Source: Oceanispirochaeta sp. (lineage in GTDB: Bacteria > Spirochaetota > Spirochaetia > DSM-2461). From it: 64,000 nucleotides of DNA. Location of the stretch: positions 42,653-106,652 of the forward strand of contig CAXXOA010000003.1 in assembly GCA_963666275.2 (NCBI GenBank). The letters are read 5' to 3'. The notes under the pieces are model-generated. The model saw only the letters and a program-made list of their open reading frames with translations, was not told where the DNA came from and did not search any database. This document shows, in pieces, positions 4,430 to 23,412 of this stretch (the stretch's first letter is position 1; each line of letters starts with the position of its first letter). Position numbers and translations under genes: made by a program.

Positions 4430-4467
4430 ATGCTTCAAAAAAATTGGCCGAATACATTCGATTAAAT

Positions 4468-4496
4468 TTGACAGTTGAAAAAAGTAGTGCAATAAT
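4468..4496 (+). promoter_or_regulatory. Sigma70 promoter for the FAD/Fe-S/FAD operon (TTGACA-17 nt-AATAAT)
   Basis: TTGACA is at 4468-4473 and AATAAT at 4491-4496. It lies 45 nt upstream of the TTG start at 4542. Confidence 0.6.
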
Positions 4497-4541
4497 TGCA
4501 AACATTGTAAATATTGCGAATTTTGAAAGGAGGCCAAAACT

Positions 4542-6014: not shown

Positions 6015-6038
6015 ATATTGAAACGGAGGAAAGAAAGC

Positions 6039-7313
6039 ATGGCTTTAAAAGATTTAAGACCCATGATGGAACGGTGCAGCAGCTGCGCTGGCTGTAAATT
6101 CATTCCATTTGAAAAAATAAAAAGCTTAAGATTTGCGGAAAACTGTCCCAGTATAGGTTATTACAATTTTACAACCTATTCTGCCAGAGGCCGTTTCCAG
6201 CTGAGCCAGAGTATTCTGGACGGTAGAACAGATCTTAATGACACGGTAACCGAGACAATTCACTCCTGTACTTCCTGCGGACTTTGTGATGTGACATGTA
6301 AGGTAACAAGATACAATCTGGAACCCCTGGAACACAACATTGCTCTGAAAGCTCACGCTGTAAAGGAAGGCGCTGTCCTTCCCGGTCAGAAAGCTGTTAT
6401 GGACAATCTTGCAAAAGAAAACAGCATGATCCCCGGAACAAAGAAATCCGGCAGAACCGACTGGGCCAAAGGCTTGAAAATGAAAGATCTTTTCAAGGAA
6501 AAAGGCGAAGTGGCATTCTTTGCGGGATGTAAATACAGCTATGACAGCAAGCTTCAGAAAGTGGCTCAGGATGCTGTTCGAGTCCTTCAGAGTGCCGGTG
6601 TGGATCTGGGATACCTGGGATCAGCCGACAACTGCTGTACCGGCCGGGCCAAGCAGATGGGATTTGTGGATGAGTTTGAAAAAGGTGCCAACACCAACAT
6701 CAAAGCCTTCGAAAAGGCCGGTGTTAAAACCATCGTAACCCCCTGTTCCGACTGCTACCATACCTTCAAAAGAGAGTATGCCGCTCTGGGAATGGATGTT
6801 GAAGTTCTGCACGTTGTTGAATACATCGACAGGCTGATCAAAGAAGGCAAGATCAAATTCACCAAGTCCATCCCCATGACCGTGACCTACCATGATCCCT
6901 GTCACCTGGGACGACTGGGTGAGAAACATGAACCATGGGAAGGAACTGACAAGAAGATTTTCAATCAGGTCCATATCTATGAACCCAGAAAACCCCGGTA
7001 CAACGGAATCGACGGGATCTATGATGCTCCCAGAAATATCCTGGAAGCCATCCCTGGTGTGAAACTGACTGAAATGGAAAGGATCCGGGAGTACTCCTGG
7101 TGCTGCGGTGCCGGTGGCGGATGCAGCGAAACCCTTCCCGAGTATTCATCCTGGACCGCTGGAGAGAGAGTTGCCGAAGCCAATGCGACAGGTGCTGATG
7201 CTATGGTCACAGCCTGTCCCTGGTGTAAAGACAACTTTATGAAAGCGGAAGATGAAGATGGCAACACCATTGAAGTCATGGACATCATCGAACTTGTCCA
7301 GCAGGCACTTTAA
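6039..7313 (+). CDS. Fe-S oxidoreductase with two CCG domains (GlcF/GlpC/HdrD-like)
   Basis: The ORF spans 6018-7313; ATG 6039 is preferred (GGAGGA 8 nt upstream). It has ferredoxin-type clusters (CSSCAGC...CP and CTSCGLCDVTC) plus two Cys-rich CCG modules (ADNCCTGRA...CSDC and SWCCGAGGG...CPWC). Confidence 0.9.
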   Translation: MALKDLRPMMERCSSCAGCKFIPFEKIKSLRFAENCPSIGYYNFTTYSARGRFQLSQSILDGRTDLNDTVTETIHSCTSCGLCDVTCKVTRYNLEPLEHNIALKAHAVKEGAVLPGQKAVMDNLAKENSMIPGTKKSGRTDWAKGLKMKDLFKEKGEVAFFAGCKYSYDSKLQKVAQDAVRVLQSAGVDLGYLGSADNCCTGRAKQMGFVDEFEKGANTNIKAFEKAGVKTIVTPCSDCYHTFKREYAALGMDVEVLHVVEYIDRLIKEGKIKFTKSIPMTVTYHDPCHLGRLGEKHEPWEGTDKKIFNQVHIYEPRKPRYNGIDGIYDAPRNILEAIPGVKLTEMERIREYSWCCGAGGGCSETLPEYSSWTAGERVAEANATGADAMVTACPWCKDNFMKAEDEDGNTIEVMDIIELVQQAL

Positions 7314-7328
7314 GGAAGGAGGAAAAAT

Positions 7329-8993
7329 ATGGCTTTATCAAGAGAAATATACCAGGCCCTTGAAGACGTAGTAGGAAAGAAAAATATTTCCGAAGACATC
7401 GGGGTTTGCGAAACATACAGAAGTATTCCCTCTCAGACTTCGGCCCACTACGGACCTTCAAAAGAGTGGACACCTCTTCCCCAGGCGGTTGTACTGCCCG
7501 GAAGTACGGAAGAAGTTCAGAGTATTGTTAAAATCTGTAACAAATACGGAATTGAATTCAAAGCGGGATCTACCTTCTGGGCTACCATGGCCTATATCGG
7601 TGGAGACAACGCCATTCAGCTGGATATGCGCCGCATGAAAAGCGTTGAAATTGACGTGAAAAATATGCACGCTGTGGTTGAACCCTTCGCTATTGCCGCA
7701 ACCGTTCAGGCTGAAGCCATGAAGGTTGGACTGAACCTGAATATTCCCGGTGTAGGATGCAGCAGCTCCGTACTGGCCAGCAGTTCCGGATGGGCCGGAT
7801 TCGGTCCTGCCTCGATCTTCATGGGTGCCAACCCCGAAAACCTCCTCGGAGCCGAATGGGTGCTCCCTAACGGAGAAATCATCAGAACCGGTTCTCTCGG
7901 TTCGGGTGACGGATGGTTCTGCGGTGAAGGCCCCGGACCCAGTACCAGAGGTATCCTGAGAGGGATCTTCGGCCCTGCCGGTGCGATGGGTGTCTGTACC
8001 AAACTCGCGACAAGACTTCACCCCTGGCCCGGTCCCAAAGAGTTCAAAACCTACGGAAAGGCTCCCGCCTACAAAGCGGACTTCGGGGATAACTTTAAAT
8101 GCTATACCCTCTGCTACCCCAGCTGGGAAGCCTGGGCAAGGAGTGTACAGTATTTCCACGAAAGTGATGTCCTGTACATCGGTCATAGACAGTTCAACAT
8201 GTTCGGAAGAAACCTCAAAGCTTTTATGCTGAACATCATTACTGACGAAACCAAACAGCTTTCCGATCTGCCTGAGCTTCTGAAAGATCCTGAAATCCAG
8301 AAACACAATGACAATATGAAGCTTGACTATCAGGTTGTTATTGCGGGAATGACTCCCCGGGATATGGAGTATAAGGAAAAGGCCATCGATTACATCCTGG
8401 AACAGACCGGCGGATGGAAGCATGAAATGATGCTGGAGAAAGATAAGCATGACTACGCTCTGGCCTACATGACAAGACTGGGACACAAGAACCTGAACTT
8501 CGTTATGTGCGGTGCCTACGAAGGTACATTTGGTCTTTCCGGAAACGTATGGAAAACCATTCAGGTTGTTGAAGAAGCGTCTGCACAGAAAAGAAAATGG
8601 GAAACAGAAGAGACCTGTATTGCCGCTACCGGTGGTGACTCCGCCATGGGGGGTGTCTCCGGAATGGGGGGAGGAGGAGCCACCGGTTGGGAATTCTTTA
8701 CCAACTTCGACTCCTACTATCCCAAGTCTGTGGAAGGCACCTGTAAAATGGTGGATGAAAACCAGCAGTTCCACAACAAGTATTCCTTCGGTCCTGATTT
8801 CTGCCGCTGGAATTCGGATGTCCGTCATATGAACGGTTACAACTACACTCAGGAGGAACACGATGATATTTTCAAAAATGCTCCCCAGCCCTGGGTATTT
8901 GCCTACCAGTATAAAATCCGTCAGGCTGTGAATCCCAACAACCTCTGCGGAAGCTATCTGAGAACTCTCACTCCCGAAAAGATAACGGGATAG
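7329..8993 (+). CDS. FAD-binding oxidoreductase (second PCMH-type FAD protein, GlcE/VAO-like)
   Basis: 554 aa with an AGGAGGA SD. It has an FAD-binding N-terminus (AVVLPGSTEEVQSIVKICNKYGIEFKAGST), a long cap domain with the Gly-rich insert GGDSAMGGVSGMGGGGATGW, and is followed by a strong terminator. Confidence 0.8.
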   Translation: MALSREIYQALEDVVGKKNISEDIGVCETYRSIPSQTSAHYGPSKEWTPLPQAVVLPGSTEEVQSIVKICNKYGIEFKAGSTFWATMAYIGGDNAIQLDMRRMKSVEIDVKNMHAVVEPFAIAATVQAEAMKVGLNLNIPGVGCSSSVLASSSGWAGFGPASIFMGANPENLLGAEWVLPNGEIIRTGSLGSGDGWFCGEGPGPSTRGILRGIFGPAGAMGVCTKLATRLHPWPGPKEFKTYGKAPAYKADFGDNFKCYTLCYPSWEAWARSVQYFHESDVLYIGHRQFNMFGRNLKAFMLNIITDETKQLSDLPELLKDPEIQKHNDNMKLDYQVVIAGMTPRDMEYKEKAIDYILEQTGGWKHEMMLEKDKHDYALAYMTRLGHKNLNFVMCGAYEGTFGLSGNVWKTIQVVEEASAQKRKWETEETCIAATGGDSAMGGVSGMGGGGATGWEFFTNFDSYYPKSVEGTCKMVDENQQFHNKYSFGPDFCRWNSDVRHMNGYNYTQEEHDDIFKNAPQPWVFAYQYKIRQAVNPNNLCGSYLRTLTPEKITG

Positions 8994-9080: not shown

Positions 9081-9253
9081 GTGTGATAGGAGCGTCAAAG
9101 CAATGAGCTCCGATTCTCAATTCAATCCATCTGCTGCCGGCCTTAAATCTGATATAAGAGTCATTCATATTCTTTCTGGGGGATAGCCGTTATGCGGAGT
9201 CTGTATATCAGTGCGAATTCTTTTTTAAAAATTATGTATACCTAAAATCTTGC

Positions 9254-9286
9254 TTGACATCCGGAGATTCCAATTTATACTGGAAT
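9254..9286 (+). promoter_or_regulatory. Sigma70 promoter (TTGACA 9254-9259, 16 nt, TATACT 9276-9281) overlapped by inverted repeat ATTCCA-N8-TGGAAT (9267-9286)
   Basis: Read directly. The dyad spans the -10 hexamer, so it is a candidate operator, for example for the adjacent TetR. Confidence 0.6.
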
Positions 9287-9312
9287 TTCAGGAGACAAAA
9301 AAGGGGGAAACT

Positions 9313-10314
9313 ATGACAGAAAAGGAGAACTGGTTCCGTCTAATCAGGAATGAGAATCCCGGGTGGATTACAACACCCTGGGAGGCTTTTGAAGGGAATT
9401 TCTATGGGAACACCTTTGTTCTGGATCCCATATACACAGCGTTCAAGGGGGATGCAGTGCTGGGAACCTATTCCGATCAATGGGGTGTAACCTGGAAGTG
9501 GATTGAAGGACACAGACCGAATCCCTATGTGACAGAAGAGAATAAAGCCATTACCGATATAACAAAGTGGAAGGAACAGATCATCTTTCCCCCTCTGGAA
9601 GGTCATGACTGGGAATCGGCCGAACAGGTTGCCTCAAAAGTCGATAGGAGCGAGAAAATCGTCGGAAACATGCTTGTTGGGGGGCTTTTCGAACTGACCC
9701 ACTACCTGATGGGATTTCAGGATGCCCTGTGTAACTACATGCTCGAGCCTGATCATATGTATGATCTAGTCGGAGCCCTGGCGGACTGGAAGATAGAGCA
9801 TCTGAGGCAGGTCATCAGGCATATTGAACCGGACGTTGTGCTTTTTCATGATGACTGGGGCAATAAGGATAACCTCTTTCTTCCCCCGGATGTCTGGAGA
9901 GCTGTGATTAAACCGCACCAGAAAAGGATTGTGGACTTTGTCAAAGCCCATGATGTCATGTATCTTCACCACTCGGACAGTATCTGCGAACCTATCATAG
10001 AGGATATGGTGGAACTGGGTATTGATGCCTGGCAGGGTGTGATCCCCCAGAATGATATAGTGGGAATCCAGAAGCAGCTGAAAGGACGTATGGCTATGAT
10101 CGGGGGAATTGATGCCCAGGTGATCGATATGGCCGAGGCAGACGAGAAAGTTATACGGAATGAGGTAAGGAAATGCATGGATACCTACTGTCCTCAGGGG
10201 CATTTTATTCCCTGTATTCCCAATATCCTTCCTATTTTTCCGGATGTGAATGCCATTTACGAGGATGAACTGAAAAGCTACGGCAAAACCTTCTATTCTA
10301 CGGTAGGGGTGTGA
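9313..10314 (+). CDS. URO-D (uroporphyrinogen decarboxylase / MtaA-CmuA methyltransferase-like) family protein
   Basis: The ORF spans 9250-10314; ATG 9313 is preferred because it has a GGGGGA SD and 9254-9281 is a sigma70 promoter. The size (~333 aa) and blocks such as VVLFHDDWGNKDNLFLPPDVW and HSDSICEPIIEDMVELGIDAWQGV resemble URO-D-fold proteins. This family call was made by eye only. Confidence 0.6.
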   Translation: MTEKENWFRLIRNENPGWITTPWEAFEGNFYGNTFVLDPIYTAFKGDAVLGTYSDQWGVTWKWIEGHRPNPYVTEENKAITDITKWKEQIIFPPLEGHDWESAEQVASKVDRSEKIVGNMLVGGLFELTHYLMGFQDALCNYMLEPDHMYDLVGALADWKIEHLRQVIRHIEPDVVLFHDDWGNKDNLFLPPDVWRAVIKPHQKRIVDFVKAHDVMYLHHSDSICEPIIEDMVELGIDAWQGVIPQNDIVGIQKQLKGRMAMIGGIDAQVIDMAEADEKVIRNEVRKCMDTYCPQGHFIPCIPNILPIFPDVNAIYEDELKSYGKTFYSTVGV

Positions 10315-11133: not shown

Positions 11134-11187
11134 AATAGAATATATTCACCGAATAATTTCAATTTGAATGATCATTGGAACAATAAT

Positions 11188-12045
11188 ATGAATGAAGGCT
11201 GGATCAAAGACAATTACTCCATAGGCGAAATATCAGAAATCTTCGGAATCCCGAAAAAAATGCTGCGCTATTGGGACAGCATCGATCTCTTAAAGCCCTA
11301 TACAATTGATGAAATCAATAACTACAGGTATTACTCGTCCTCCCAGTTCTACCTGCTGAATTTTATTAAATACCTGAGGAATCTGGGTGTGGCCTATTCC
11401 GAAATCAAGATGAAGATGAATGAAACCCATATCAACAGCCTGGAGCAGCTCATCAAAGAGCAGATTCTGGAAAGTGAAAAGCGGATACGGGAGATTCACC
11501 GGAACAAGAAAATCCTGGCCTCCCATCTGGCAGACATAGAAATGGTAAAGGAAACCTCGGAACTGGAGGTCGACACCATCATGATTCACCATAGGGAAGA
11601 AGAGCAGTTCATCTGTCTGGAGCACACTGTGGACAGTCGGGAGAATTTTGAAATAGCTATGAGGCGTATGGAGCAGATCCTCTGCGGCCATCCCATGCTC
11701 CTTGTGTCTCAGGTCAGCCTTATTATGAGCCGGGAAAACTTCTTTGATGGAGAGTATATCCGGTTTAAATCGATCAATGTTCCCTGCGGTTTGTATAAAA
11801 CCAGAAAGAAACAGAATATTATAAGCTTTCCAGAAGGTTTGTATGCCTCTGTTAAGTTCTGGGGAAATGTGGCCAACTCCGCCCCTGTCTATGAACAGAT
11901 GAGGGAGTATTTACAAAAGAAAAATTACTCTATTATAGGTGATATAAGAAGAACTCCCATTTCTGTCGGTACAAAAGAGGGGAGTCATGATCACCTTGCC
12001 GAGCTGATCATTCCGATAGAAAATAATCTTGAAAAAAGTTTTTGA
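11188..12045 (+). CDS. MerR-family transcriptional regulator with C-terminal GyrI-like (effector-binding) domain
   Basis: The ORF starts at TTG 11164; ATG 11188 is equally possible, and neither has a good SD. It has a MerR HTH (YSIGEISEIFGIPKKMLRYWDSIDLLKP), a coiled-coil linker, then a ~150-aa C-terminal domain of GyrI/BmrR-type length. Confidence 0.85.
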   Translation: MNEGWIKDNYSIGEISEIFGIPKKMLRYWDSIDLLKPYTIDEINNYRYYSSSQFYLLNFIKYLRNLGVAYSEIKMKMNETHINSLEQLIKEQILESEKRIREIHRNKKILASHLADIEMVKETSELEVDTIMIHHREEEQFICLEHTVDSRENFEIAMRRMEQILCGHPMLLVSQVSLIMSRENFFDGEYIRFKSINVPCGLYKTRKKQNIISFPEGLYASVKFWGNVANSAPVYEQMREYLQKKNYSIIGDIRRTPISVGTKEGSHDHLAELIIPIENNLEKSF

Positions 12046-12072
12046 CCTTCCCACCTTGGGAAGGTCTACAAT
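12042..12072 (+). promoter_or_regulatory. MerR-type promoter of the GRE operon: -35 TTGACC, 19-nt spacer filled by the perfect dyad GACCTTCCCA-cct-TGGGAAGGTC, -10 TACAAT
   Basis: The -35 is at 12042-12047 (overlapping the merR stop codon 12043-12045). The dyad is at 12044-12053 / 12057-12066. The -10 is at 12067-12072. The activase ATG is at 12107. Confidence 0.8.
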
Positions 12073-12106
12073 CATTTTAAGTTTCCGAAAAACAAGGATT
12101 TTCACT

Positions 12107-13033
12107 ATGTCTGAAAAAAATACTCAGGGTATGGTTTTTGATATTCAGCCCTGTTCCATTCATGACGGTCCGGGGATACGAACCACCGTTTTTTTGAACG
12201 GATGCTATCTGCGCTGTAAATGGTGTCAGAATCCCGAATCTTTTTCACTGAAACCCGTACTTTCCTATTCGGCTGATAAATGCACCGGATGCGGAATGTG
12301 CCTGACTGTCTGTCCGAATAATGCCATTACCCTGCAGCCGGATGGAAAAACAAAAAATAACCGGGAACTCTGTGATGCCTGCGGTGCCTGTGTGACCGTG
12401 TGTCCGGCCAATGCCAGAAGTATTATAGGCAAGTCCTACACAGCTCAGGAGATCCTGGAAATTGTAGAAAAAGACAGGGTCTTTTATGAGGGTTCCGGAG
12501 GCGGCGTGACTCTGAGCGGAGGAGAGATCCTTTTTCAGAACGACTTTGCCCGGGAAGTTCTGAAGCTCTGCAGAGAAGCGGGACTTTCTACAGCTGTTGA
12601 AACCACAGGGCATGCAGACTGGGAGAAAGTCCGGGATGTCCTGCAGTACGCCGATGTGGTTCTCTACGACCTGAAGCACATGGATTCTGATAGGCATAAA
12701 GAGGCCACAGGAGTGGGAAACCGGAAGATCCTTGAAAATATCAAACTCATAAAACACGAGCTGAAAAAGGAGATCTATATCAGAATCCCTGTGATTCCCG
12801 GATTCAATGACTCATCAGAAAATCTGATGGAGACAGCGACTTTTATCAGGGAGGAACTGGGGCAGGATACAAAAATCAACCTGCTTCCCTATCACAGACT
12901 GGGGCTTGGAAAGTGGGAACTGCTGGAGCAGCCGGTGGTACCTTTCGAAGCGGAGCCGCCCACAGGCGAGCAAATGGAATATGCAAAAAATATTTTTTCC
13001 CTTCAGGGACTAACTGCGGGAATAGGAGGATGA
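12107..13033 (+). CDS. Glycyl-radical enzyme activating enzyme (radical SAM, with two auxiliary ferredoxin-type clusters)
   Basis: The ORF starts at 12029, but ATG 12107 follows an AAGGA SD and lies downstream of the promoter at 12042-12072. Motifs: DGPGIRTTVFLNGCYLRCKWCQNPE (CX3CX2C), CTGCGMCLTVCP and CDACGACVTVCP. Confidence 0.93.
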   Translation: MSEKNTQGMVFDIQPCSIHDGPGIRTTVFLNGCYLRCKWCQNPESFSLKPVLSYSADKCTGCGMCLTVCPNNAITLQPDGKTKNNRELCDACGACVTVCPANARSIIGKSYTAQEILEIVEKDRVFYEGSGGGVTLSGGEILFQNDFAREVLKLCREAGLSTAVETTGHADWEKVRDVLQYADVVLYDLKHMDSDRHKEATGVGNRKILENIKLIKHELKKEIYIRIPVIPGFNDSSENLMETATFIREELGQDTKINLLPYHRLGLGKWELLEQPVVPFEAEPPTGEQMEYAKNIFSLQGLTAGIGG

Positions 13034-13037
13034 TCAT

Positions 13038-15431
13038 ATGACGAAAAGGATCGAAAGAATGCTGGGGAATCTGAAGATTGACAAGTATCCCCTCTGCATT
13101 GAAAAATTCAGGATTGCCACGAAAACACTGGCGGAAACAGAGGGGGAACCCAATGTCCTCCGGCGTGCCAAAATCATGAAGAATGTTCTTGAGAACATAA
13201 CGATCTTCATCGAAGACGGAGAACTCTTTGCCGGCGCGGGAGCCAGTAAACCCTTTGGTCTGGAGATCGACTACGAGTATGGTACATGGACCCAGGATGA
13301 GATTGATTCCCTGAAATCTGAGAACTATACTATTACTCCCGAAGATGAGGCGGAGCTTCAGCACATCAATAACACCTATGAGATTCACAGCCTTGTGTCT
13401 ACCATGGGAGCTGTCTTCTTTGAAAACAAACAGCTCTGGCCTTTTATGAAAGCCGGAATGATCCTTCCCCCCTGGAAAGGGAAAAAAGAGGGAAGCGGCG
13501 GAGGCTATGCCCAGTCTGGACTGGGACTCGGCCCCGGGTTCTTCCTGGTGGGGATGGATTTCGAGAGGATGCTGAATGACGGTTCCCTGAAAATAATCGC
13601 CGAGTGCGAAGCCGAACTGGAAGCCATGAAGGCCAGAGGGGAAGATAACCGGGAAGGAGAGGATTTCCTCAATGCCGTTATCATTGTTCACAAAGCCATT
13701 ATCAACTTTGCCGAACGATATGCCGTACTGGCAGAATCCATGGCAGCAGATGAGAAAGATAAAACCAGAGCAGAAGAGCTTCTTCGAATAGCCGCAGCCT
13801 GCCGTAAGGTCCCTGCCCATCCGGCAGAGTCATTCTTCGAAGCGATCCAGTCCTTCTGGTTCTCCTTCCTCTTTGCCTCTCCCTCTCCCACCACTGCGGG
13901 AGCCCGGTTTGACCAGTTCATGTACCCCTTTTACAGGAAGGATATCGAAAGCGGAGCCACCTCAGACGAGGAAGTTCTGGAACTGCTTGAAGTTCTGAGA
14001 ATCAAGGATATGAAGCTCAACAGGGTCTCGGGAAAACAGAACAGAAAAAAGAATGCGGGAATGGCCAAATGGCATAACTGGACCATCGGCGGTGTGGATT
14101 CCCAGGGCAATGACGCCAGCAACAAGCTCTCCTATCTGCTCCTGGATGCTGCTATTGAGACCAAGGTTCCCCACCATACCATTACCCTGCGGGTTCATGA
14201 CAAAACCCCAGATGATCTTATGGTGAAAGCCCTGGAAGTGGTGAAAGCCGGCCTTGGCCTGCCCGCCTTTGTGGGCGACAAGTCGTATATAAATTTCTTC
14301 AGAATGAAGGGAATGAGCCTGGAGGATTCCCGGAATTATATTATGACAGGCTGTCTGGACGGAAACATTCCTGCCAAGGCCAGAACCGTTGCGGTTGGTA
14401 TGTTCCTGGTGGCGCTGGGATATGACATTTTCATGCACAACGGATTCAACAACGGAACCGGGGAAATGGTGGGAATCAAAACCGGCGATGTGACAGAAAT
14501 GGCCGACTTTGAAGAGTACAAGAGCGCTTTCTACAAACAGCTCGACTATCTGCTGGAACTGGCTGTCGAAAAGAGCAACATCGAACTGAAAGCCGAACAG
14601 GACCTCTTTCCCGATCCCTTCCGTTCTTCTCTGATGAAAGATGCCATTAAAGAGAAAAAGGATATTCTCAGAAGGACTATGCCTCTGGAAAACGGCCTTG
14701 TTCTGTGTACCATCGGGGCTATCAATGTGGCCGACTCTATGGCCGCGGTGAAAAAGCTTGTCTTTGAAGAGAAGAAATACACCATGCAGGAGTTAATGAC
14801 AGCCCTGGATTCCAACTGGGAAGGTTATGAAGTTATGCGAAATGATTTCATAGAAGCCCCCAAATATGGTAACGACGAAGACTACGTAGACCTTCTGGCT
14901 GCAGAACTCTACTCCCATATAGAAAAGAAGCTGGCTTCCATGGATACCTATTACGGAGGAAAAGCTGTAACAACAGCCATTTCCATTACGTCCCATCAGC
15001 CCGGTGGAGCCCTGACGGGAGCTACTCCTGATGGAAGAAAAAAAGGTGAGATACTGGCGGATGGAAGTATGTCTCCCATGCACGGGTACGACAAGAAAGG
15101 CCCCACCGGTGTTCTCAAAAGTGCCATGAAAATTGACCAGGATCCCTATCAGGCAACCCTGCTCAATATGAAGTTCCATCCTTCTGCGCTCAGCAGTGAG
15201 GCGGATATGGTGAAACTGGGGAATCTGATCAAAACCTATTTCTCCCAGGGCGGTAAACACATGCAGTTCAATATTGTGGACAAAGGCCAGTTAATCGAGG
15301 CCAAGGAAACCCCCGAGGAGCATCAGGACCTGGTTGTCCGGGTGGCCGGATACAGTGCGTATTTTACAGCTCTCGGCACAGAAATGCAGGATGAAATCAT
15401 CGAGAGAACAGAGTTCACAACGGTTGGTTAA
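13038..15431 (+). CDS. Glycyl-radical enzyme, PFL2/glycerol-dehydratase-like family, substrate unknown
   Basis: 797 aa with a GGAGGA SD. The C-terminal glycyl-radical motif is VVRVAGYSAYF (Gly771, 15348-15350). The thiyl loop is YIMTGCLDGN (Cys439 at 14352-14354, Asp441 at 14358-14360). The N-terminal PFL-like barrel signature includes WHNWTIGG. Confidence 0.93.
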   Translation: MTKRIERMLGNLKIDKYPLCIEKFRIATKTLAETEGEPNVLRRAKIMKNVLENITIFIEDGELFAGAGASKPFGLEIDYEYGTWTQDEIDSLKSENYTITPEDEAELQHINNTYEIHSLVSTMGAVFFENKQLWPFMKAGMILPPWKGKKEGSGGGYAQSGLGLGPGFFLVGMDFERMLNDGSLKIIAECEAELEAMKARGEDNREGEDFLNAVIIVHKAIINFAERYAVLAESMAADEKDKTRAEELLRIAAACRKVPAHPAESFFEAIQSFWFSFLFASPSPTTAGARFDQFMYPFYRKDIESGATSDEEVLELLEVLRIKDMKLNRVSGKQNRKKNAGMAKWHNWTIGGVDSQGNDASNKLSYLLLDAAIETKVPHHTITLRVHDKTPDDLMVKALEVVKAGLGLPAFVGDKSYINFFRMKGMSLEDSRNYIMTGCLDGNIPAKARTVAVGMFLVALGYDIFMHNGFNNGTGEMVGIKTGDVTEMADFEEYKSAFYKQLDYLLELAVEKSNIELKAEQDLFPDPFRSSLMKDAIKEKKDILRRTMPLENGLVLCTIGAINVADSMAAVKKLVFEEKKYTMQELMTALDSNWEGYEVMRNDFIEAPKYGNDEDYVDLLAAELYSHIEKKLASMDTYYGGKAVTTAISITSHQPGGALTGATPDGRKKGEILADGSMSPMHGYDKKGPTGVLKSAMKIDQDPYQATLLNMKFHPSALSSEADMVKLGNLIKTYFSQGGKHMQFNIVDKGQLIEAKETPEEHQDLVVRVAGYSAYFTALGTEMQDEIIERTEFTTVG

Positions 15432-15435
15432 TCAT

Positions 15436-15474
15436 TCCGCACCGGAAAAAAAAGGATTAGGGATCCGGTGCGGA
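15436..15474 (+). other. Intercistronic 11-bp stem-loop (TCCGCACCGGA...TCCGGTGCGGA) between the GRE and permease genes, with no T-tract
   Basis: The arms are at 15436-15446 and 15464-15474 with a 17-nt A-rich loop. The absence of a U-run argues for an mRNA stability or processing element rather than a full terminator. Confidence 0.5.
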
Positions 15475-15497
15475 TATAATAGAAAAAGGAGGACTTT

Positions 15498-16781
15498 ATG
15501 TCTGTTGTTCTGATCTGTCTTGCTGCTATTGTGGCTGTCATCGTTATCGGGGCTAAAACAAAAACCAATATCGGTTTATGGGCCATTGGTGCGGCTTATC
15601 TGATCGGTGTTTTTGTATTGGGTCTGTCTCCCAGGGATATCATAGGTGTCTTTCCCACCAGATTGTTCCTGCTGCTTTTCTCTGTCACCCTGTTTTACGG
15701 ATTTGCTGTTCTCAACGGGACTCTGGAAGCTGTGGCAAAAAAGGTTGTCTACTCAGTAAGAGATATCCCCTGGGCTATTCCTATCGCTCTGTTCCTGCTG
15801 TCCTTCATAATGTCCGCCATCGGTGCAGGCGACGGAGCCACCGTGATGATGATCCCCATCGGACTTTCCATTGCGAAAGTGACAGGCATGAATAATATCC
15901 TGGCGGCGGTATCCTGCGTTTCCGGTATCAGTATGGGTGGGTTCTCCCCGATCAGTACTGCCGGTATCTTCCTCCGGGAGATGGCGGAACGGGCAGGGGG
16001 ACACTCTATCGCAGAGGTTAACAGCTACGGTAACCATGCCTTCTTTCAGGTCTGTTTGCTCTTTACCCTGGTATTCATTATTGCCTACTTTGTCTTCAAG
16101 GGTTACAAAATCGAAGCCCCTGTTCTGGACAAACCAGAACCCTTTGAAAAAGAACAGAAAAGGAACCTCGGTATTATCGTAGGATTTGTACTTGTACTGG
16201 TTATCGGACCTGTCCTGGGAAAGATTTTCCCCGGAAGTCCCGGAATCGTAAAAATTGCCAGAGGGATCTATCTGACATGGATCGCTTTCATCGGATCCAT
16301 CTTTGCTACCCTGCTGAAAGTAGGCGACGAGAAAATGGCTTTCAAAAGGGTTCCCCTTTCTGCTCTGACCACTCTCTGCGGTATGGGGACACTGATCGGT
16401 ATCGTCAGCAAATCCGGAGCAATTGAAATGGTTTCCGGTTACCTCTCCCAGAGTGTGCCCGCACCTCTGGTTCCCATCATGCTGGGACTGATCGCCGGTA
16501 TTATGAGCCTCTTTGTGAGCGGATTTGTTGTGAACACCACGTTCTTTGCTCTTGTACCGACTCTTGCTATGGGAACAGGTATGGTTTCTGGCTTCCTGTA
16601 CTCGGCTGTCGCTGTGGGTGGTATGTCTACTGCTGTATCCCCCTTCTCCGGATCGGGCGGTCTTGTGGTTGCCAGTGTGGAAGAAGAACATCATAGAAAT
16701 AAGATCTTCAACTTCCTCCTTATCTGGCCCTTTTTCAATCTGGCAGTATATCTTGTCATTGTAGCACTTGGTATTTACTAA
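15498..16781 (+). CDS. Polytopic permease, ion-transporter superfamily-like (CitMHS/ArsB/DASS/DcuC-type); probable substrate importer for the GRE
   Basis: 427 aa with an AGGAGGA SD. It is hydrophobic throughout (about 10-12 predicted helices) with a central amphipathic loop (KGYKIEAPVLDKPEPFEKEQKRN), a two-half architecture typical of IT-superfamily carriers. The family call is tentative. Confidence 0.6.
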   Translation: MSVVLICLAAIVAVIVIGAKTKTNIGLWAIGAAYLIGVFVLGLSPRDIIGVFPTRLFLLLFSVTLFYGFAVLNGTLEAVAKKVVYSVRDIPWAIPIALFLLSFIMSAIGAGDGATVMMIPIGLSIAKVTGMNNILAAVSCVSGISMGGFSPISTAGIFLREMAERAGGHSIAEVNSYGNHAFFQVCLLFTLVFIIAYFVFKGYKIEAPVLDKPEPFEKEQKRNLGIIVGFVLVLVIGPVLGKIFPGSPGIVKIARGIYLTWIAFIGSIFATLLKVGDEKMAFKRVPLSALTTLCGMGTLIGIVSKSGAIEMVSGYLSQSVPAPLVPIMLGLIAGIMSLFVSGFVVNTTFFALVPTLAMGTGMVSGFLYSAVAVGGMSTAVSPFSGSGGLVVASVEEEHHRNKIFNFLLIWPFFNLAVYLVIVALGIY

Positions 16782-16808
16782 GATATAACAGTTATTTATT
16801 GCTCAACA

Positions 16809-16838
16809 GGCTCCGGGATTATTCCGGGGCCTTTTTTT
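16809..16838 (+). terminator. Rho-independent terminator after the permease gene (end of the GRE operon)
   Basis: GGCTCCGG-gattatt-CCGGGGCC followed by T7. Confidence 0.8.
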
Positions 16839-16879
16839 ACTTTTCTTGAGGGATCGCATAAAGAAATGGACTGTATATG

Positions 16880-17414: not shown

Positions 17415-18257
17415 TTATGCCTCAATAATTTCTTTAATCATTTTAATTCTTTTATCAATCAGATCGGGCCATACTGCAGGATTCTGGAACGGGTTGTGCC
17501 CGGGGGTTATGGAATCCACTTTCTCAAGCATATTTATCTGGCCCGGATGGGATCCCAGAGTTATCTCTACGTTAAAATCCCGAACCTTGCGCATACTTTC
17601 CAGATACTCCTGACGGGATGTCTCGGGAAGATTGAACTCCTTAAGGAAATCATCAGTCAGAGTATTGACTCCAACGCCGCCATGAAGGCCGCATTTATAG
17701 ACTCTGCCTTCTTCATCCTCCGCATCGAAAAAGAAGGAGGTCGTTCCCGGTGTATGACCGGGCGTATGGACCGTATGAACTGTTCTGTCTCCCAGAACCA
17801 CGGGCCTGTCATCAGAGAAAAACGCGTCTGCTTCAAAGTCACCGCAGGGATAATTTTCTGACAGGAGAAGCTCCGGTCTTTCTTTCAGCATATCAGAGTC
17901 TTCTTTCGCCATATAGAGCCTGGCACCGCTGGCTTCCAGGATTGCTCTGATACCTCCTGCATGATCATAATGGGCATGAGAGAGGAGAAGGAGTTTTATG
18001 TTCCCGGGATCAAATCCAAGCATTCGGATGCTTTCAAAAACCAGATACACCTGAGGCTGCATGGTTGAATCTATCAGAATCAGTCCGTCCGAGGTTTCAA
18101 GCAGGTAGGCTCCAACCCAGCTGTTTCCAACATACCAGGTACGGGGAGCCACCTTGAAAGGGGCAACGGCAACTTCCCAGGGGCGTTCACAGCCCTGTTT
18201 CAGAAAGTCATACGGATTCGTCAGGGGCTGCTGAAGTTTGGACTTATTCATATTCAA
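17415..18257 (-). CDS. MBL-fold metallo-hydrolase
   Basis: 280 aa. It has the HxHxDH motif (LLLSHAHYDHAGG) and a downstream His (VHTPGHTPG). Confidence 0.9.
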   Translation of the reverse strand: MNMNKSKLQQPLTNPYDFLKQGCERPWEVAVAPFKVAPRTWYVGNSWVGAYLLETSDGLILIDSTMQPQVYLVFESIRMLGFDPGNIKLLLLSHAHYDHAGGIRAILEASGARLYMAKEDSDMLKERPELLLSENYPCGDFEADAFFSDDRPVVLGDRTVHTVHTPGHTPGTTSFFFDAEDEEGRVYKCGLHGGVGVNTLTDDFLKEFNLPETSRQEYLESMRKVRDFNVEITLGSHPGQINMLEKVDSITPGHNPFQNPAVWPDLIDKRIKMIKEIIEA

Positions 18258-18282
18258 TATCTCCTTTTTAATTAATATTCCT

Positions 18283-19227
18283 TCAGTTCTGGATAGGGGT
18301 TTGATTATTTTTCAGCACTTTATCAAAGAATGCCAGAATCTTTTCTTTGGTCTGTTCCTGAAAAAATTCGCGTGTACCATGACCGCCGTTTATAATCCGG
18401 ATAAGATCCACCCTGTCTTCCAATCCTTTTTCTGCAATTTTTTCATATAACTCTTCACTCTGCTCGAAAGGTACCAGAGGATCCTGATCTCCGTGAAGGA
18501 TAATCATGGGACACATGGAGTCAGTGATGTAATTGACCGGGCTGGCATCATGGAGTTTGGGCCAGGCTTCCGGTCCGTCTTCACCAACAAGTGCTCCGCC
18601 ATGGGTCTCTCCTATACTCTTCCAGCGGTAGTCGGGGTTGTTTTTTATCTCTTCCAAATCCATTTCCAGCAGTTTTACTAGATTGGCGGGACCGAAGAGA
18701 TTGCAGCAGGCCTGGACTTTTGATGAAAATCCGTTCCACTCATCCGATATATTATCCTCCAAATTCATAGAGGCCATTGTGGAGAGATAACCGCCGGCAG
18801 ATCTGCCGATAATACCGATATTCTCCGGATCTATCAGATATTCATCTGCATGGGCGCGAAGGAACCGGACGGCTGTTTTTACATCGATTATCTGATCGGG
18901 ATAGTGGCCCTGGGCGCTGCTGCGGTAGTAAATGGATGCAACAACGTAACCTGCCTCTGCAAGGAACTGCATCTCGGATACCATAAGGTTCTTATCGCAT
19001 CCCCGGAAACCGCCGCCGGGAACCCAGACGATAAGGGGTTTCCGGGCCGATTCGGCCTCGTCATCCAGTCCTGCGGCAAGGCGCATTTCGCTATTGCCGT
19101 TCTGTACCATAATTGACAGAAGCAGATCCATGGGATTTCCATTCAGGTCTGTGACATGGGAATAGCAGATATTGTCCAGAAAATTGATACTTCTCCTTTC
19201 TTTTCCCGGATCGAGATCATATTTCAT
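18283..19227 (-). CDS. Alpha/beta hydrolase (carboxylesterase, HGG-type oxyanion hole)
   Basis: 314 aa. Motifs: VWVPGGGFRG (oxyanion hole), nucleophile elbow GRSAGG, and C-terminal HGDQDPLVP / GGHG. Confidence 0.85.
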   Translation of the reverse strand: MKYDLDPGKERRSINFLDNICYSHVTDLNGNPMDLLLSIMVQNGNSEMRLAAGLDDEAESARKPLIVWVPGGGFRGCDKNLMVSEMQFLAEAGYVVASIYYRSSAQGHYPDQIIDVKTAVRFLRAHADEYLIDPENIGIIGRSAGGYLSTMASMNLEDNISDEWNGFSSKVQACCNLFGPANLVKLLEMDLEEIKNNPDYRWKSIGETHGGALVGEDGPEAWPKLHDASPVNYITDSMCPMIILHGDQDPLVPFEQSEELYEKIAEKGLEDRVDLIRIINGGHGTREFFQEQTKEKILAFFDKVLKNNQTPIQN

Positions 19228-19274
19228 AATAGTTAACTCCAGATAAATAGTTGATCAACAGGATCTATTAAGGC

Positions 19275-19320
19275 AAAAAACAGGTGTATCCTGAGACAGG
19301 GGTTCTCAGATGCACCTGTT
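19275..19320 (-). terminator. Terminator after the sigma-54-driven esterase/TTT operon
   Basis: An imperfect ~16-bp hairpin (ACAGGTGTATCCTGAGA...TCTCAGATGCACCTGT) is followed on the minus strand by a T-run (plus-strand A6 at 19275-19280). Confidence 0.7.
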
Positions 19321-19348
19321 AAACAATAGGGCGGTTTCTGTATCCGGT

Positions 19349-20332
19349 TTATTTCAGACCGAGTATAGCCGCAGTTTCTCCGATTTTCCTGTCTCCTTCG
19401 ACAAGACGGGTTTCACTGTCTGCCAGAGGAAGGTACCGGAGGGGCATATGCATTTTATCAAACTGACCGGAAACGGCAGGATCTGACATAACTTCCTTAA
19501 ATGCAAGGTTGACCTTTTCTGCTACAGCAGGATCTAAACCGGCGGGGCCGAGAATAAAAAAGTCCAGACCGTACACAGCGCTTTCATATCCCAGCTCATA
19601 AAGGGAGGGATAGTCAGGAGCACCCGGATCTCTTTCAGAAAAACCTGCTATGGTTGCCAGAATGTTCAGCTTGTCTGCTTCGGCATACTGAAGAGCTCCC
19701 GGTGTGTTAACAAATGCCGCATCGATGGTGCCGCCCTGAACTGCTACCAGTTTGTCCGCATCGGAACCTGCTTCGACGATTTTGAACTGGGCATCACTGT
19801 CTTTAATAAGAAGGCCTGCCATAAAGTGGGAAGAACCTTTCAGCTGTACACCCAGTGTAATTTTGCCCGGGTTCGTTCTGGTTGCGGCAATGAGATCTTC
19901 AATAGAACTGTAGGGTGAGTCCGGGCCGACAACTAAAGAATAGCTTCCGTCTACGGGCATGACAGCACAGGTTGTAAACTCTTCAGACGGGGAGTGGTCA
20001 TACTGACCTGTGTGGTAGCTGGAGAACATTCCGGAGTGGTAGAACAGAATTGTGCTTCCGTCAGTTTTGGAATTTCTTACTGTTTCAGATGCGACGCTTC
20101 CTCCACCGGAAGGCTGATTGACCACAACAAAGGGTTTTCCCAATTTTTCCTGCAGTGCCTTTGCCAGGATTCGGGCTGCCGCATCTGTACCGCCCCCTGC
20201 CTTTGCAGGAACTACAAACTGAACACTGCCCTTGGGCCATTCCGCTCCGTTTCCGGACTTTTCAGACTGGCCTTCCGCAAATGCGGAGAGAGTCAGAATC
20301 GATAGAACTAAAATACTAATAATTTTCTTCAT
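19349..20332 (-). CDS. tctC: Tripartite tricarboxylate transporter substrate-binding protein (TctC/Bug family)
   Basis: The ORF extends to 20383; ATG 20332 is preferred (AAAGGAG SD). It has a signal peptide (MKKIISILVLSILTLSAFA) and the motifs VPAKAGGGTD and VVNQPSGGG. Confidence 0.9.
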   Translation of the reverse strand: MKKIISILVLSILTLSAFAEGQSEKSGNGAEWPKGSVQFVVPAKAGGGTDAAARILAKALQEKLGKPFVVVNQPSGGGSVASETVRNSKTDGSTILFYHSGMFSSYHTGQYDHSPSEEFTTCAVMPVDGSYSLVVGPDSPYSSIEDLIAATRTNPGKITLGVQLKGSSHFMAGLLIKDSDAQFKIVEAGSDADKLVAVQGGTIDAAFVNTPGALQYAEADKLNILATIAGFSERDPGAPDYPSLYELGYESAVYGLDFFILGPAGLDPAVAEKVNLAFKEVMSDPAVSGQFDKMHMPLRYLPLADSETRLVEGDRKIGETAAILGLK

Positions 20333-20386
20333 AATATGCTCCTTTCGTATAACGTTAAGATCCTTTGGGATCTCTAATTCCATGGT

Positions 20387-21877
20387 TTAGGCTTTTTCTC
20401 TCAGTTTCCGGATAGCATCCTTGATATAGGGCCATACAACGCTGAAAACGGCCGCAGCCAGAAGCAGTCCTGAAATAGGACGGGTAAAGAAGGGCATAAT
20501 ACCCTGGTCGGTATAGGTAAATCCCTTTCTGAGATTGGATTCCAGCATGGGCCCCAGGATAAAACTGAGAATAAAGGGGCTTGTGGGTATCTTGACGATA
20601 TCAAAGAGGAATCCCAGAGCAGCAAAACTCAGAAGCAGGACAAAGTTAAAAGCTGTGCTGGAGCTGATGAATACACCGACAAAACCGAGAACAATAATAA
20701 CCGGATAGAGGTAGTAGTAGGGGATCTTCAGTATCATTGGAAAGAGTCTCATTCCGAAAAACTGCTGAAACAGTACCAGAATTGACGCAAAAAGGGCAGT
20801 TCCAAAGAGGGTGAAGACGATGGCTGGATTATTGGTGAAAAGCAGTGGTCCCGGCTGAATTCCATGGATCATCAGACCGCCCAGCAGAATCGCTGTTGTT
20901 CCGTCTCCGGGTATCCCCAGGGCAACCATGGGAATCAGAGATCCGCCGACAGAAGCATTGTTGGAAATTTCCGATGCGAACACACCGTCAACAATACCGG
21001 TACCGAATTTTTCCGGATGTTTGGAACTGCTTTTTGCCTGGGCATAGGCCACCATATTGGAGAGGGCTGCTCCCATTCCCGGAAGGAAACCGATCCAGAG
21101 TCCGATAAAAAACGACCTGATCAGGTTCCAGATATTATCAATATACTCTTTAAGGGTAACACCGAATCCGGTGATGTTTTTCATATCCACAGGGGGAAGT
21201 TCCTTCTGGCCTTTCCCATAGTCCAGTACAATCTGTTTGATAGCAAAAAGTCCAAGCATCAGAGAGATCAGGTCGAACCCTCCGTTCAGATAAATATTTC
21301 CAAATGCAAAGCGGGGATACCCGTCAATAGGCGCAAAACCGACGGAGCTGAGTAGCAGACCGATAGCCGCTGAAGCCAGTCCTTTGAAAATGTTGTCTCT
21401 GGACAGGGCTGCTACCAGGGTAATGGCGCAGAAGCCCAGTGAGAAATACTCCCAGGGACCCAGTTTGAGAGCCAGGTCAGCTATAACAGGACTGAGAAAT
21501 GTCGCTATAATTATGCTGAAAAAAGTACCCAGAAACGAAGCAGTAATCGCGGCTCCCAGGGCTTTGACAGCCTGTCCGTTTTTGGTCATAGGGTATCCAT
21601 CAAAACAGGTCGCAATAGCTGAAGGGGATCCTGGTATACCCAGAAGAATGGAACCTACCATGGCTCCTGAAACACCTCCGACCCAGATACCTATCAGCAT
21701 GGCAAGTCCTAGATGGGGATCCATCCCGAAGGTGACAGGCAGAAGAAGAGCAACTCCCAGGCCGCCGCTGAGACCGGGAATGGCACCCAGAACAATACCG
21801 AGAGCGGCTGCACAGAATACAAGCAGGAAGGTACCTGGATGAAGCAGTGATAAAAGACTTGTTAAAAACATTTCCAT
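20387..21877 (-). CDS. tctA: Tripartite tricarboxylate transporter large permease TctA
   Basis: 496 aa and polytopic. It shows conserved TctA blocks (GAIPGLSGG, LGIPGDGTTAILLG, HGIQPGP). Confidence 0.92.
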   Translation of the reverse strand: MEMFLTSLLSLLHPGTFLLVFCAAALGIVLGAIPGLSGGLGVALLLPVTFGMDPHLGLAMLIGIWVGGVSGAMVGSILLGIPGSPSAIATCFDGYPMTKNGQAVKALGAAITASFLGTFFSIIIATFLSPVIADLALKLGPWEYFSLGFCAITLVAALSRDNIFKGLASAAIGLLLSSVGFAPIDGYPRFAFGNIYLNGGFDLISLMLGLFAIKQIVLDYGKGQKELPPVDMKNITGFGVTLKEYIDNIWNLIRSFFIGLWIGFLPGMGAALSNMVAYAQAKSSSKHPEKFGTGIVDGVFASEISNNASVGGSLIPMVALGIPGDGTTAILLGGLMIHGIQPGPLLFTNNPAIVFTLFGTALFASILVLFQQFFGMRLFPMILKIPYYYLYPVIIVLGFVGVFISSSTAFNFVLLLSFAALGFLFDIVKIPTSPFILSFILGPMLESNLRKGFTYTDQGIMPFFTRPISGLLLAAAVFSVVWPYIKDAIRKLREKA

Positions 21878-21890
21878 ATGTTGATACCTC

Positions 21891-22352: not shown

Positions 22353-22411
22353 CTATATATGGTTCCTTTTTAAATTCCCCGAAAGAGTGACATTCCGGGG
22401 TATATAGGCAC

Positions 22412-23386: not shown

Positions 23387-23412
23387 TTTAAACTCCTTTA
23401 ACCATTTAGATA

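Follow-up and report, generated by a model that had tools for sequence, protein, structure and literature searches.

What does a glycyl radical enzyme (GRE) catalyse when the loop that carries its thiyl cysteine reads Cys-x-Asp, where the characterised eliminases keep Cys-x-Glu? The question is raised by an operon in a 64,000-nt stretch of DNA from Oceanispirochaeta sp. (GenBank assembly GCA_963666275.2, contig CAXXOA010000003.1, forward-strand positions 42,653 to 106,652; hereafter the window, numbered from its first letter), which a preliminary description had singled out as a candidate undescribed system. We find that the GRE belongs to a large, old, undescribed and widespread clade in which the catalytic loop has taken a fixed variant form, that its substrate is probably an imported carboxylate and, more tentatively, that it may remove carbon dioxide from this substrate. 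The operon itself, which encodes an oxygen-sensitive radical enzyme, is intact and is firmly predicted from its sequence to be a functional, substrate-inducible and self-contained catabolic module. Its features are as follows.

11164-12045, + strand: MerR-family regulator (Pfam MerR_1, E 6.6e-14; GyrI-like effector domain, weak)
12042-12072, + strand: MerR-type promoter (TTGACC at 12042-12047, 19-nt spacer, TACAAT at 12067-12072)
12107-13033, + strand: GRE-activating radical-SAM enzyme, 308 aa, in open reading frame (ORF) 12029-13033 (TIGR02494, Pfam, motifs)
13038-15431, + strand: 797-aa PFL2-type GRE of the Cys-x-Asp clade (Pfam, structure model, Foldseek, tree)
14349-14366, + strand: Cys loop G438-C439-L440-D441-G442-N443 (codon check, HMMER alignments)
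15339-15407, + strand: glycyl radical fingerprint RVAGYSAYFTALGTEMQDEIIER (regex match from residue 768, with Gly771 at 15348-15350)
15436-15475, + strand: intercistronic hairpin CCGCACCGGA...TCCGGTGCGG with no T-run, within the 66-nt gap between GRE and permease
15498-16781, + strand: MatC_N/CitMHS anion permease of the ion-transporter (IT) superfamily, 427 aa (Pfam)
16808-16839, + strand: intrinsic terminator (11-bp stem at 16808-16832 with 7 G-C pairs, 3-nt loop, run of seven T)

The GRE matches the PFL-like (PF02901, E 3e-152) and Gly_radical (PF01228, E 1e-30) domains of Pfam, and its codons place Cys439 (TGT) at 14352-14354, Asp441 (GAC) at 14358-14360 and Gly771 (GGA) at 15348-15350. 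The fingerprint around Gly771 follows the published definition RVxG[FWY]x6-8[FL]x4Qx2[IV]x2R (PMC13598205). An AlphaFold2 (AF2) model of the protein (mean pLDDT 82, pTM 0.87) matched about 50 GRE chains in Foldseek with TM scores of 0.81-0.88 at 26-33% identity, among them glycerol dehydratase (GDH; 1r8w) with a TM score of 0.87 at 33%. On its domains, fingerprint, cysteine and adjacent activase, the protein is assigned to the PFL-like division of the GRE superfamily. Model confidence fell below a pLDDT of 50 at residues 154-167 and 651-683, which may reflect either a shallow alignment or genuine mobility. The first is the Gly-rich segment specific to the clade and the second the region of the conserved TGATPDGR loop; both lie near the active site in known GREs.

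HMMER alignments with CutC, GDH, propanediol dehydratase (PD), PflD and AAD set T-G-C-L-D-G-N of the query on G-C-V-E-P-Q, G-C-V-E-L-S or G-C-V-L-H-Q, and aligned Cys439 with the catalytic Cys of all five. Because the query GCLD falls on the GCVE or GCVL of known GREs, Asp441 occupies the position two residues after the cysteine (Cys+2); the by-eye placing of Asp441 at the position of the Cys+2 Glu, on which the preliminary description had staked its case, was thus borne out. Its statement that PFL carries a Cys-Cys pair also held, E. coli PflB reading ACCVSP, whereas the query reads TGCLD and has no adjacent cysteines.

To what extent is this loop a property of the enzyme's relatives? Every one of the 120 closest database homologues (57-100% identity) carries GC[LV]D, and every one likewise has R[VI]AGYS; the Asp loop is therefore not a chance variant. 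In a species-level scan with one genome per species, at least 582 stretches encoded relatives, and virtually every GRE copy of the best 80 loci (40-83% identity), tandem paralogues included, had GC[LVIM]D. The two residues that follow Asp differ by subclade (GN, AN, VN, LN, PA, VQ, GY, AV or LM). A search over 1.84 billion cluster representatives, with tabulation of the active-site columns, showed Glu in the Cys+2 column of 63 of the 150 best representatives of clusters at 50% identity, the others having D, S, H, G, Q, Y, T, N and further residues, and non-Glu Cys loops are common across uncharacterised GREs. Asp441 could itself do the acid/base job of Glu. Since non-Glu loops are frequent and Asp may replace Glu functionally, Asp alone is no proof of new chemistry; where the preliminary description had taken the Cys-x-Asp loop as a sign of novel chemistry, we retain the loop variant as observed and, given 63 of 150, the novelty as inference only.

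The best 80 loci come from about ten phyla, with Spirochaetia, Clostridia, Acidobacteriota, Desulfobacterota, Planctomycetota, Chloroflexota and Coriobacteriia among the groups represented. Isolates with the operon include Geosporobacter ferrireducens IRF9, Fusibacter ferrireducens, Murimonas intestini and Hominifimenecus. The nearest orthologues (83% and 80% identity) were found in metagenome-assembled genomes (MAGs) of Spirochaetia, and the clade amounts to about 20 clusters at 50% identity. The top 20 or so full-length representatives (36-56% identity) share a signature consisting of Leu170, Thr285, Trp345-His346-Asn347, Asp441, Arg449 and Ile648-Ser649...His653, together with the Gly-rich segment PPWK...GSGGGYAQSGxGLGPGFFL. 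Trp345-His346 stands where GREs usually have Phe/Tyr-Gln. Positions 157, 168, 169, 339, 346, 348, 451 and 453 vary inside the clade, a pattern that would suit a fixed reaction centre with changeable specificity positions.

A neighbour-joining (NJ) distance tree was built from 146-147 GREs, comprising the representatives, GDH and AAD as read from the HMMER alignments, Klebsiella CutC and three E. coli proteins (YbiW, PflD and PflB); HypD, IslA, HPAD, IAD, PhdB and BSS carry no label in it. The query fell in a 25-tip clade, and the next node out (26 tips, with P0130 added) had a bootstrap of 50/50. Trp345 and Arg449 were each present in 24 of the 25 tips and Asp441 in 20, so that the Cys+2 tabulation proposed in the preliminary description returned Asp in four-fifths of the tips as well as in all of the best homologues. 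The phylogeny that it had also proposed set the clade apart from GDH, CutC, YbiW and PflD, with an 8-9-tip group containing AAD (7E7L) as sister (47/50), in a tree where most characterised GREs are unlabelled. The clade is undescribed, as had been suspected of the system, and widespread; it does not amount to a categorically new system.

The five tips that lack Asp (P0140, P0124, P0131, P0134 and P0149) comprise one Cys-x-Glu, two Cys-x-Gly, one Cys-x-Pro and one Cys-less sequence, the last reading GALSIA at the Cys loop. One of the Cys-x-Gly members is the GRE of the Novosphingobium sp. PP1Y megaplasmid (L081, 8920-11415), with the glycyl motif RIGGCS; it was also the best match in a search of plasmids, all matches of which were at or below 39% identity. 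His653 (14994-14996) accompanies Asp441 in 14 of 16 clade representatives and occurs in one of five non-Asp members, counts that are uncorrected for phylogeny, and the two residues could form a functional pair. Clade GREs that differ in the residues after Asp stand two or three in tandem at L083/L084/L085, L049, L025, L012, L041 and L065. At L083, three of them share one activase; the locus further holds two permease genes, two genes of PucR type, one for a CoA transferase and one for an AMP-ligase. Such arrays suggest repeated duplication and substrate diversification.

How far, then, does the enzyme lie from GREs of known function? No NCBIfam equivalog model was matched at its cut-off, the GRE falling short by a factor of about two in bits: HpsG 519 of 1000 (the best), CutC 467 of 1050, HypD 451 of 1100 and HpfG 424 of 1000 among the eliminases, and IAD 446 of 1100, HPAD large subunit 355 of 1150 and PFL 130 of 994 beyond them. 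Identity to the query in our own alignment was 36.4% for GDH, 34.6% for AAD, 33.8% for PflD, 32.2% for CutC, 31.7% for YbiW and 25.2% for PflB, and solved GREs overall were 26-36% identical. The similarity check against characterised GREs that the preliminary description had called for thus revealed no high-identity enzyme of known function in the PDB and NCBIfam searches, and its placing of the enzyme outside the characterised families is upheld. Nor did we find a characterised or solved Cys-x-Asp enzyme in the PDB (whole-protein, Cys-loop and clade-profile searches), in NCBIfam, in a GRE review of June 2026 or in the literature. One candidate, 9RCO, entered as an unnamed 'glycyl radical protein', was rejected, as it is PD.

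The review contains no Cys-x-Asp enzyme and calls entire clades unvalidated (PMC13450708). Six C-O eliminases, CutC, three C-S lyases and three isomerases all keep the Cys-x-Glu (CXE) motif, the Glu of which hydrogen-bonds the substrate in those eliminases and isomerases (PMC13450708); the query (C-L-D) and its homologues (C-[LV]-D) lack the motif. For the arylacetate decarboxylases, which had also been said to carry Glu at Cys+2, the statement holds for HPAD and IAD only: the AAD loop reads GC-V-L-HQ in the HMMER alignment, with Leu at Cys+2, and PhdB has an essential Gln484 at Cys482+2 (PMC13450708).

Beyond the loop, HMMER mapping of GDH onto the query took His164 (the general acid) to Leu170, Ser282 to Thr285, Phe333 to Asn339, Tyr339 to Trp345, Glu435 to Asp441, the Asp447 region to Ala452/Val453 and Tyr640 to Ile648. 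CutC Asp216 mapped to Phe168 and PD His164 to Leu170, in a segment (140-175) that is unstable in MAFFT and of low confidence in AF2. No polar or acidic residue was found at the position of GDH His164, CutC Asp216 and HypD His160, where the alignment is unstable. As aligned, the leaving-group acid of the eliminases appears to be gone and several hydrogen-bonding residues appear to be hydrophobic. Arg449, which is specific to the clade and lies at Cys+10, is a plausible anchor for a carboxylate.

In which setting would such an enzyme work? The spacing of the operon (gaps of 4 nt after the activase gene and 66 nt after the GRE gene, four genes co-directional) agrees with the earlier account of a compact operon running from the promoter at 12042 to the terminator at 16838, the coordinates and residues of which proved correct against the ORF table and codons. 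The activase scored 359 bits against TIGR02494 (cut-off 174) and has Radical_SAM and Fer4 domains; its true start is likely the ATG at 12107, which is preceded by an AAGGA ribosome-binding site. A CX3CX2C motif at residue 33 and CX2CX2CX3C motifs at residues 59 and 89 are consistent with three [4Fe-4S] clusters, in keeping with the three-cluster radical-SAM activase described before. The IT-superfamily-like permease was likewise confirmed by its MatC_N (E 1e-29) and CitMHS (E 2e-19) matches, and is presumed to import the substrate or to exchange substrate for product. The hairpin between GRE and permease may be an element of mRNA stability or processing, or may set the ratio of GRE to permease expression. 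Small accessory subunits had been reported as absent and are so, the 4-nt and 66-nt gaps being too short for them. Rfam and tRNA scans of the window gave no matches.

MerR-activated promoters are recognized by an over-long spacer of 19-20 bp that bears a dyad. Here, a perfect 10-bp inverted repeat, GACCTTCCCA-CCT-TGGGAAGGTC (12044-12066), covers the end of the -35 hexamer and the entire spacer, and the hexamer overlaps the merR stop codon. This promoter was absent from a generic promoter scan because the scan admits spacers of 16-18 nt only and the spacer has 19 nt. The layout TTGACC-TTCCCA...19 nt...TA also precedes the activase in three loci with orthologues (L001, L002 and L068); in L010 that place is taken by an analogous promoter whose dyad differs. 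MerR orthologues stand in front of activase-GRE pairs in L001, L002, L068, L010 and L050, and the regulator probably activates the activase-GRE-permease operon. Of the MerR/GyrI assignment made earlier, the MerR part stands; the GyrI-like match (E 2.5e-4, 21.8 bits against a cut-off of 26) is weak and sub-threshold.

A survey of conserved neighbourhoods, another step proposed in the preliminary description, was carried out by clustering crude gene calls from 81 clade loci and annotating the recurrent clusters. It revealed an activase in 45 loci, a PucR-type regulator in 23, a MatC-like permease in 22, PGA_cap and Opp-type ABC genes in 15 each, URO-D-like genes (two clusters) in 12, MmgE/PrpD in 11, family I CoA transferases in 8, MerR and S15 hydrolase genes in 7 each, family III CoA transferases in 6 and HGD-D dehydratase pairs in 5. 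Acyl-CoA dehydrogenase with electron-transfer flavoprotein (ETF), AMP-ligases, TRAP and TctABC transporters, esterases and a DUF4125/DUF4037/TPR trio were further neighbours. The adjacency of GRE and permease and the CoA and dehydratase themes thus recur. For GREs of the GC[LV]DGN type, the MatC-like permease lies directly downstream in 10 of 35 and at most three genes away in 12 of 35; in L082 the pair stands beside an HgdC-like activator and two HGD-D genes, and the permease is present in L083 too. At other clade loci it is replaced by TRAP, TctABC, CitMHS or Opp transporters, mostly carboxylate systems.

HGD-D pairs, CoA transferases or ligases and the oxidoreductase trio described below recur near clade GREs (L004, L016, L031, L051, L075 and L082), hinting, in the case of the HGD-D pairs and CoA transferases, at a shared 2-hydroxy-acid pathway. 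In L075 (Dehalococcoidales), relatives of all three genes of the trio lie directly upstream of activase and GRE. The URO-D-like genes (clusters 7 and 62; L005, L029, L031, L032, L038, L045, L053, L055, L063, L069 and L076) often stand directly beside the GRE in their 12 loci and may encode a decarboxylase or a methyltransferase; no corrinoid protein was found among the annotated recurrent neighbours. The DUF4125/DUF4037/TPR-protein trio was seen beside the activases of clade GREs in L031, L034, L037 and L057, and DUF4125 and DUF4037 proteins are expressed from a limonene ring-cleavage operon of a Syntrophobacteraceae MAG (PMC12583861).

One further locus, L068, has a 67%-identical orthologue behind the same MerR operator; beside it, a TRAP binding protein takes the place of the permease. 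The best solved relative of that protein is 4n6d (116 bits), and the next matches, at about 67 bits, include 4NAP, which binds a D-amino acid (PMC10443332). We judged these matches too distant for inferring a substrate and set them aside. We also made no use of entries 4PGN and 4PGP of the 4NAP protein, which we take to hold indole-3-pyruvate and indole-3-acetate.

The window itself carries several of these neighbours upstream of the operon, and others downstream.

868-1641, - strand: acyl-CoA dehydratase activase (NCBIfam TIGR00241, 251 bits, above cut-off)
1792-3438, + strand: acyl-CoA ligase (Pfam)
3597-4328, + strand: GntR/FCD regulator (Pfam)
4542-8993, + strand: FAD_binding_4 / CCG Fe-S / FAD_binding_4 oxidoreductase trio (Pfam)
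9250-10314, + strand: URO-D-like protein (Pfam URO-D, E 9e-16)
Downstream of the GRE operon: esterases and a TctC-TctA-TctB-TctC transporter

The operon had been labelled an orphan, a label that we drop: the upstream island holds a dehydratase activase, a CoA ligase, an FAD/Fe-S trio and a URO-D-like gene, the relatives of which recur beside clade GREs. The island (868-8993) is possibly linked to the GRE operon, and the URO-D-like gene possibly belongs to the GRE pathway; its product had no sequence match in the PDB, and MtaA models matched it far below threshold only. The trio bears a weak likeness to GlcD, with a TfrB/GlpC-like Fe-S subunit, and HGD-D dehydratase subunits matching the activase at 868-1641 would sit before the start of the window. 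Downstream, 17415-31595 forms an organic-acid utilisation island with two TctABC-type systems, three hydrolases of alpha/beta-hydrolase or metallo-beta-lactamase (MBL) type, a PrpR-type sigma-54 activator (24554-26590), a galactarate/altronate-dehydratase-like gene (27101-28687) and an enolase-superfamily gene (28720-30060). No bacterial microcompartment (BMC) shell protein and no aldehyde or alcohol dehydrogenase was found among the annotated genes from 868 to 31595, and no sulfite or small-subunit genes in or beside the GRE operon; by Pfam and NCBIfam annotation, the earlier statement that microcompartment, aldehyde/alcohol dehydrogenase and sulfite genes are missing there was accurate.

Together, these data allow us to propose a role for the operon. 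An effector would bind the MerR/GyrI-like protein, which in its effector-bound form would activate the promoter with the 19-bp spacer. The three-cluster radical-SAM activase would then place a radical on Gly771 of the GRE, while the MatC/CitMHS-type permease would import an organic anion, most probably a monocarboxylate or dicarboxylate. The radical would move from Gly771 to Cys439, and the Cys439 thiyl radical would attack the substrate. Up to this point the scheme is strongly implied by the sequence; more tentatively, the substrate, a carboxylic acid, would be decarboxylated by radical C-C cleavage to give a stabilised radical, on the model of the arylacetate decarboxylases. Asp441 would relay a proton to Cys439 or to the substrate, as Glu does in HPAD and IAD, and the product would leave the cell or enter CoA-dependent steps encoded nearby.

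That the substrate is a carboxylate is probable because the clade's transporters are mostly carboxylate systems, the Arg is specific to the clade and CoA-activating genes lie downstream. That the reaction is a radical decarboxylation we put forward only tentatively, as the reading towards which we lean. The reasons are threefold: the clade has the AAD group as its sister in the tree, the leaving-group acid appears to be gone, and the operon holds only enzyme, activase, transporter and regulator. The operon lacks any enzyme that would process a carbonyl product, its enzyme and transport genes being those of activase, GRE and permease. GRE decarboxylase clusters consist of enzyme and activase, sometimes with a transporter, whereas every characterised eliminase or isomerase cluster has a carbonyl-processing enzyme (established knowledge and PMC13450708). 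Kinship with AAD is also seen in the Cys-loop region, where AAD is the best local match, and a representative of the AAD group (P0240) is 69% identical to the AAD fragment. In HMMER, GDH, PD and CutC require two gaps at residues 142-169 that AAD does not; we dropped shared insertions as evidence of kinship, as HMMER and MAFFT disagree there.

Several observations weigh against decarboxylation. Raw similarity is flat across GDH, AAD, PflD and CutC (32.2-36.4% identity), and the clade profile scored CutC (618 bits) and GDH (614) above AAD (575) in the PDB, so that the closest characterised relative is ambiguous, seemingly AAD by topology and GDH or CutC by score. The activase fits the subtype models of HypD-AE (349 bits) and HpsH (338) better than those of HPAD-AE (295) and IAD-AE (293). 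The tree is distance-based, with the labels listed above missing, and residues 140-175 align unstably with low AF2 confidence. The AAD group is non-acidic at Cys+2, which makes Asp441 more eliminase-like. Last, CoA transferases or ligases, HGD-D dehydratases and acyl-CoA dehydrogenase/ETF occur at many clade loci; CoA-activating neighbours imply that the product is often still a carboxylate, as would be so if a dicarboxylate were decarboxylated or if the reaction were no decarboxylation.

A more specific form of the proposal, which we consider unlikely as it stands, is a GRE reaction not described so far, the radical decarboxylation of non-aromatic di- or tricarboxylates that yield stabilised radicals. 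Itaconate, aconitate or glutaconate (allylic), substituted malonates and 2-hydroxy-dicarboxylates are our guesses for such acids. Arg449 would grip one carboxylate and Asp441, perhaps with His653, would relay the proton; the MatC-type permease would exchange substrate for product, and the three-gene module alone could conserve energy. If this were true, the expansion of paralogues would represent a family of related acids used by anaerobes of gut, rumen and sediment.

The points against decarboxylation lead to its nearest competitor, an eliminase- or isomerase-type GRE acting on a hydroxy- or amino-(di)carboxylate, which we hold doubtful, though nearly as likely as decarboxylation. Cys439 would take a hydrogen from a carbinol carbon, or one that bears an amine, and Asp441 would deprotonate the hydroxyl, as the CXE Glu does; the ketyl radical would expel a good beta-leaving group or open a ring, and the product would be a central 2-oxo acid or a compound like it that needs no dedicated downstream enzyme. 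An acidic residue is kept exactly at the CXE position, CutC, GDH and PD lead in whole-protein, profile and fold similarity, and the activase is closest to eliminase activases. A 2-hydroxy-acid theme lies nearby (HGD-D dehydratases with activator, CoA transferases and, weakly, the GlcD-like FAD/Fe-S oxidoreductase), and PucR/CdaR-type regulators occur in 23 loci. However, CXE is strict in about 15 characterised eliminases and isomerases, and Asp is just as strict here; where those enzymes have their general-acid or leaving-group residue (His164 in GDH, Asp216 in CutC) the query has Leu or Phe, and the residues that hydrogen-bond the GDH substrate map to hydrophobics (Trp345, Ile648 and Ala/Val). 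The NJ tree sets the clade apart from GDH, CutC, YbiW and PflD, and the operon has no product-processing enzyme.

An improbable, though not negligible, reading is that the Cys-x-Asp/Arg449/Trp-His site is adapted to a reaction type new to GREs. The active-site signature is unlike that of every characterised class, the clade is big and has diversified, some loci holding as many as three paralogues in tandem that share one activase, and it has neighbours unseen with known GREs (PGA_cap, MmgE/PrpD, URO-D-like and DUF4125/DUF4037). Yet nothing speaks positively for any specific novel reaction, and the GRE functions of the last decade all fall within a few mechanistic themes (PMC13450708).

It is far less credible that a known enzyme (a glycerol/diol dehydratase, a choline, isethionate or hydroxyproline enzyme, or PFL) is present here as a divergent orthologue, with Asp neutrally replacing Glu. 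Asp and Glu are chemically alike, and the fold and motifs are of PFL2 type; but the equivalog models are missed about twofold in bits, identity to every solved GRE is at most 36%, the substrate-binding residues differ and Asp is constant over hundreds of sequences with no D/E drift, whereas PFL needs its Cys-Cys pair and no microcompartment or aldehyde-handling genes are present. Equally remote is a hydroalkylase of the X-succinate synthase (XSS) type that adds its substrate to fumarate, with the permease bringing fumarate or a dicarboxylate: some clade loci do combine a dicarboxylate-type permease, family III CoA transferases and acyl-CoA dehydrogenase/ETF, as in the beta-oxidation of benzylsuccinate, but gaps of 4 and 66 nt leave no space for the small subunits, characterised XSS enzymes keep such accessory subunits (PMC13450708), and MasD (340 bits) and BSS (320 bits) score below the eliminases or AAD.

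Why does the assignment matter? GREs perform hard anaerobic chemistry, and several bear on host health through the formation of trimethylamine, H2S, p-cresol and skatole. The Cys-x-Asp branch, which occurs in anaerobes of human gut, rumen, soil and sediment, is one of many unstudied branches of the superfamily. Identifying the substrate would extend the GRE repertoire by a reaction or, failing that, by a class of substrates. It would also probe the actual role of the Cys+2 acid and allow hundreds of genes that currently go by the name 'formate C-acetyltransferase' to be annotated. The operon is a worthwhile and well-defined target for enzyme discovery, and a handy entry point, being minimal and having its own regulator, operator and transporter that can be used as an inducer reporter.

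Compared with known systems, the operon resembles different ones in different parts. Its regulator matches the N-terminal MerR domain of NF053782, the model for choline-utilisation MerR activators (E 2.7e-15), and its target promoter has a 19-bp spacer and operator dyad, as for MerR-family activators of GRE clusters; in contrast, it scores 57 bits against a cut-off of 450, and its own effector domain is different and weakly GyrI-like.

Among the enzymes, HPAD and IAD share with the query an acidic residue at Cys+2 for which a proton relay is proposed. In the structure paper on IAD, the Glu reaches the substrate through a water placed where other GREs have the Glu carboxylate, and a similar water-mediated contact could be open to the shorter Asp441. 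Both are, however, far more distant (HPAD 248 bits; IAD model 446 against 1100), and HPAD requires a small subunit. GDH (1R8W), PD (5I2A, 9RCO) and CutC have the top sequence, profile and fold scores (E 2.5e-130, TM 0.87), the same geometry of Gly and Cys loops, an acidic Cys+2 residue and three-cluster activases. Unlike in the query, they have Glu, His164 or Asp216 and polar binding residues where ours are replaced; the query locus lacks microcompartment and aldehyde-processing genes, and the query lies outside their positions in the tree and below their equivalog cut-offs.

AAD of Olsenella scatoligenes (7E7L) differs by Leu at Cys+2, the lack of Arg at 449, Phe for Trp345 and His for Ile648, at 34.6% identity, and its mechanism and substrate pose are unsettled according to the review. 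Like the query, it is a PFL2-type GRE of one subunit and lacks accessory subunits; the two have His-Asn at 346-347, Ser649, His653 and RVAGYSAY in common, and the substrate of AAD is itself a carboxylate.

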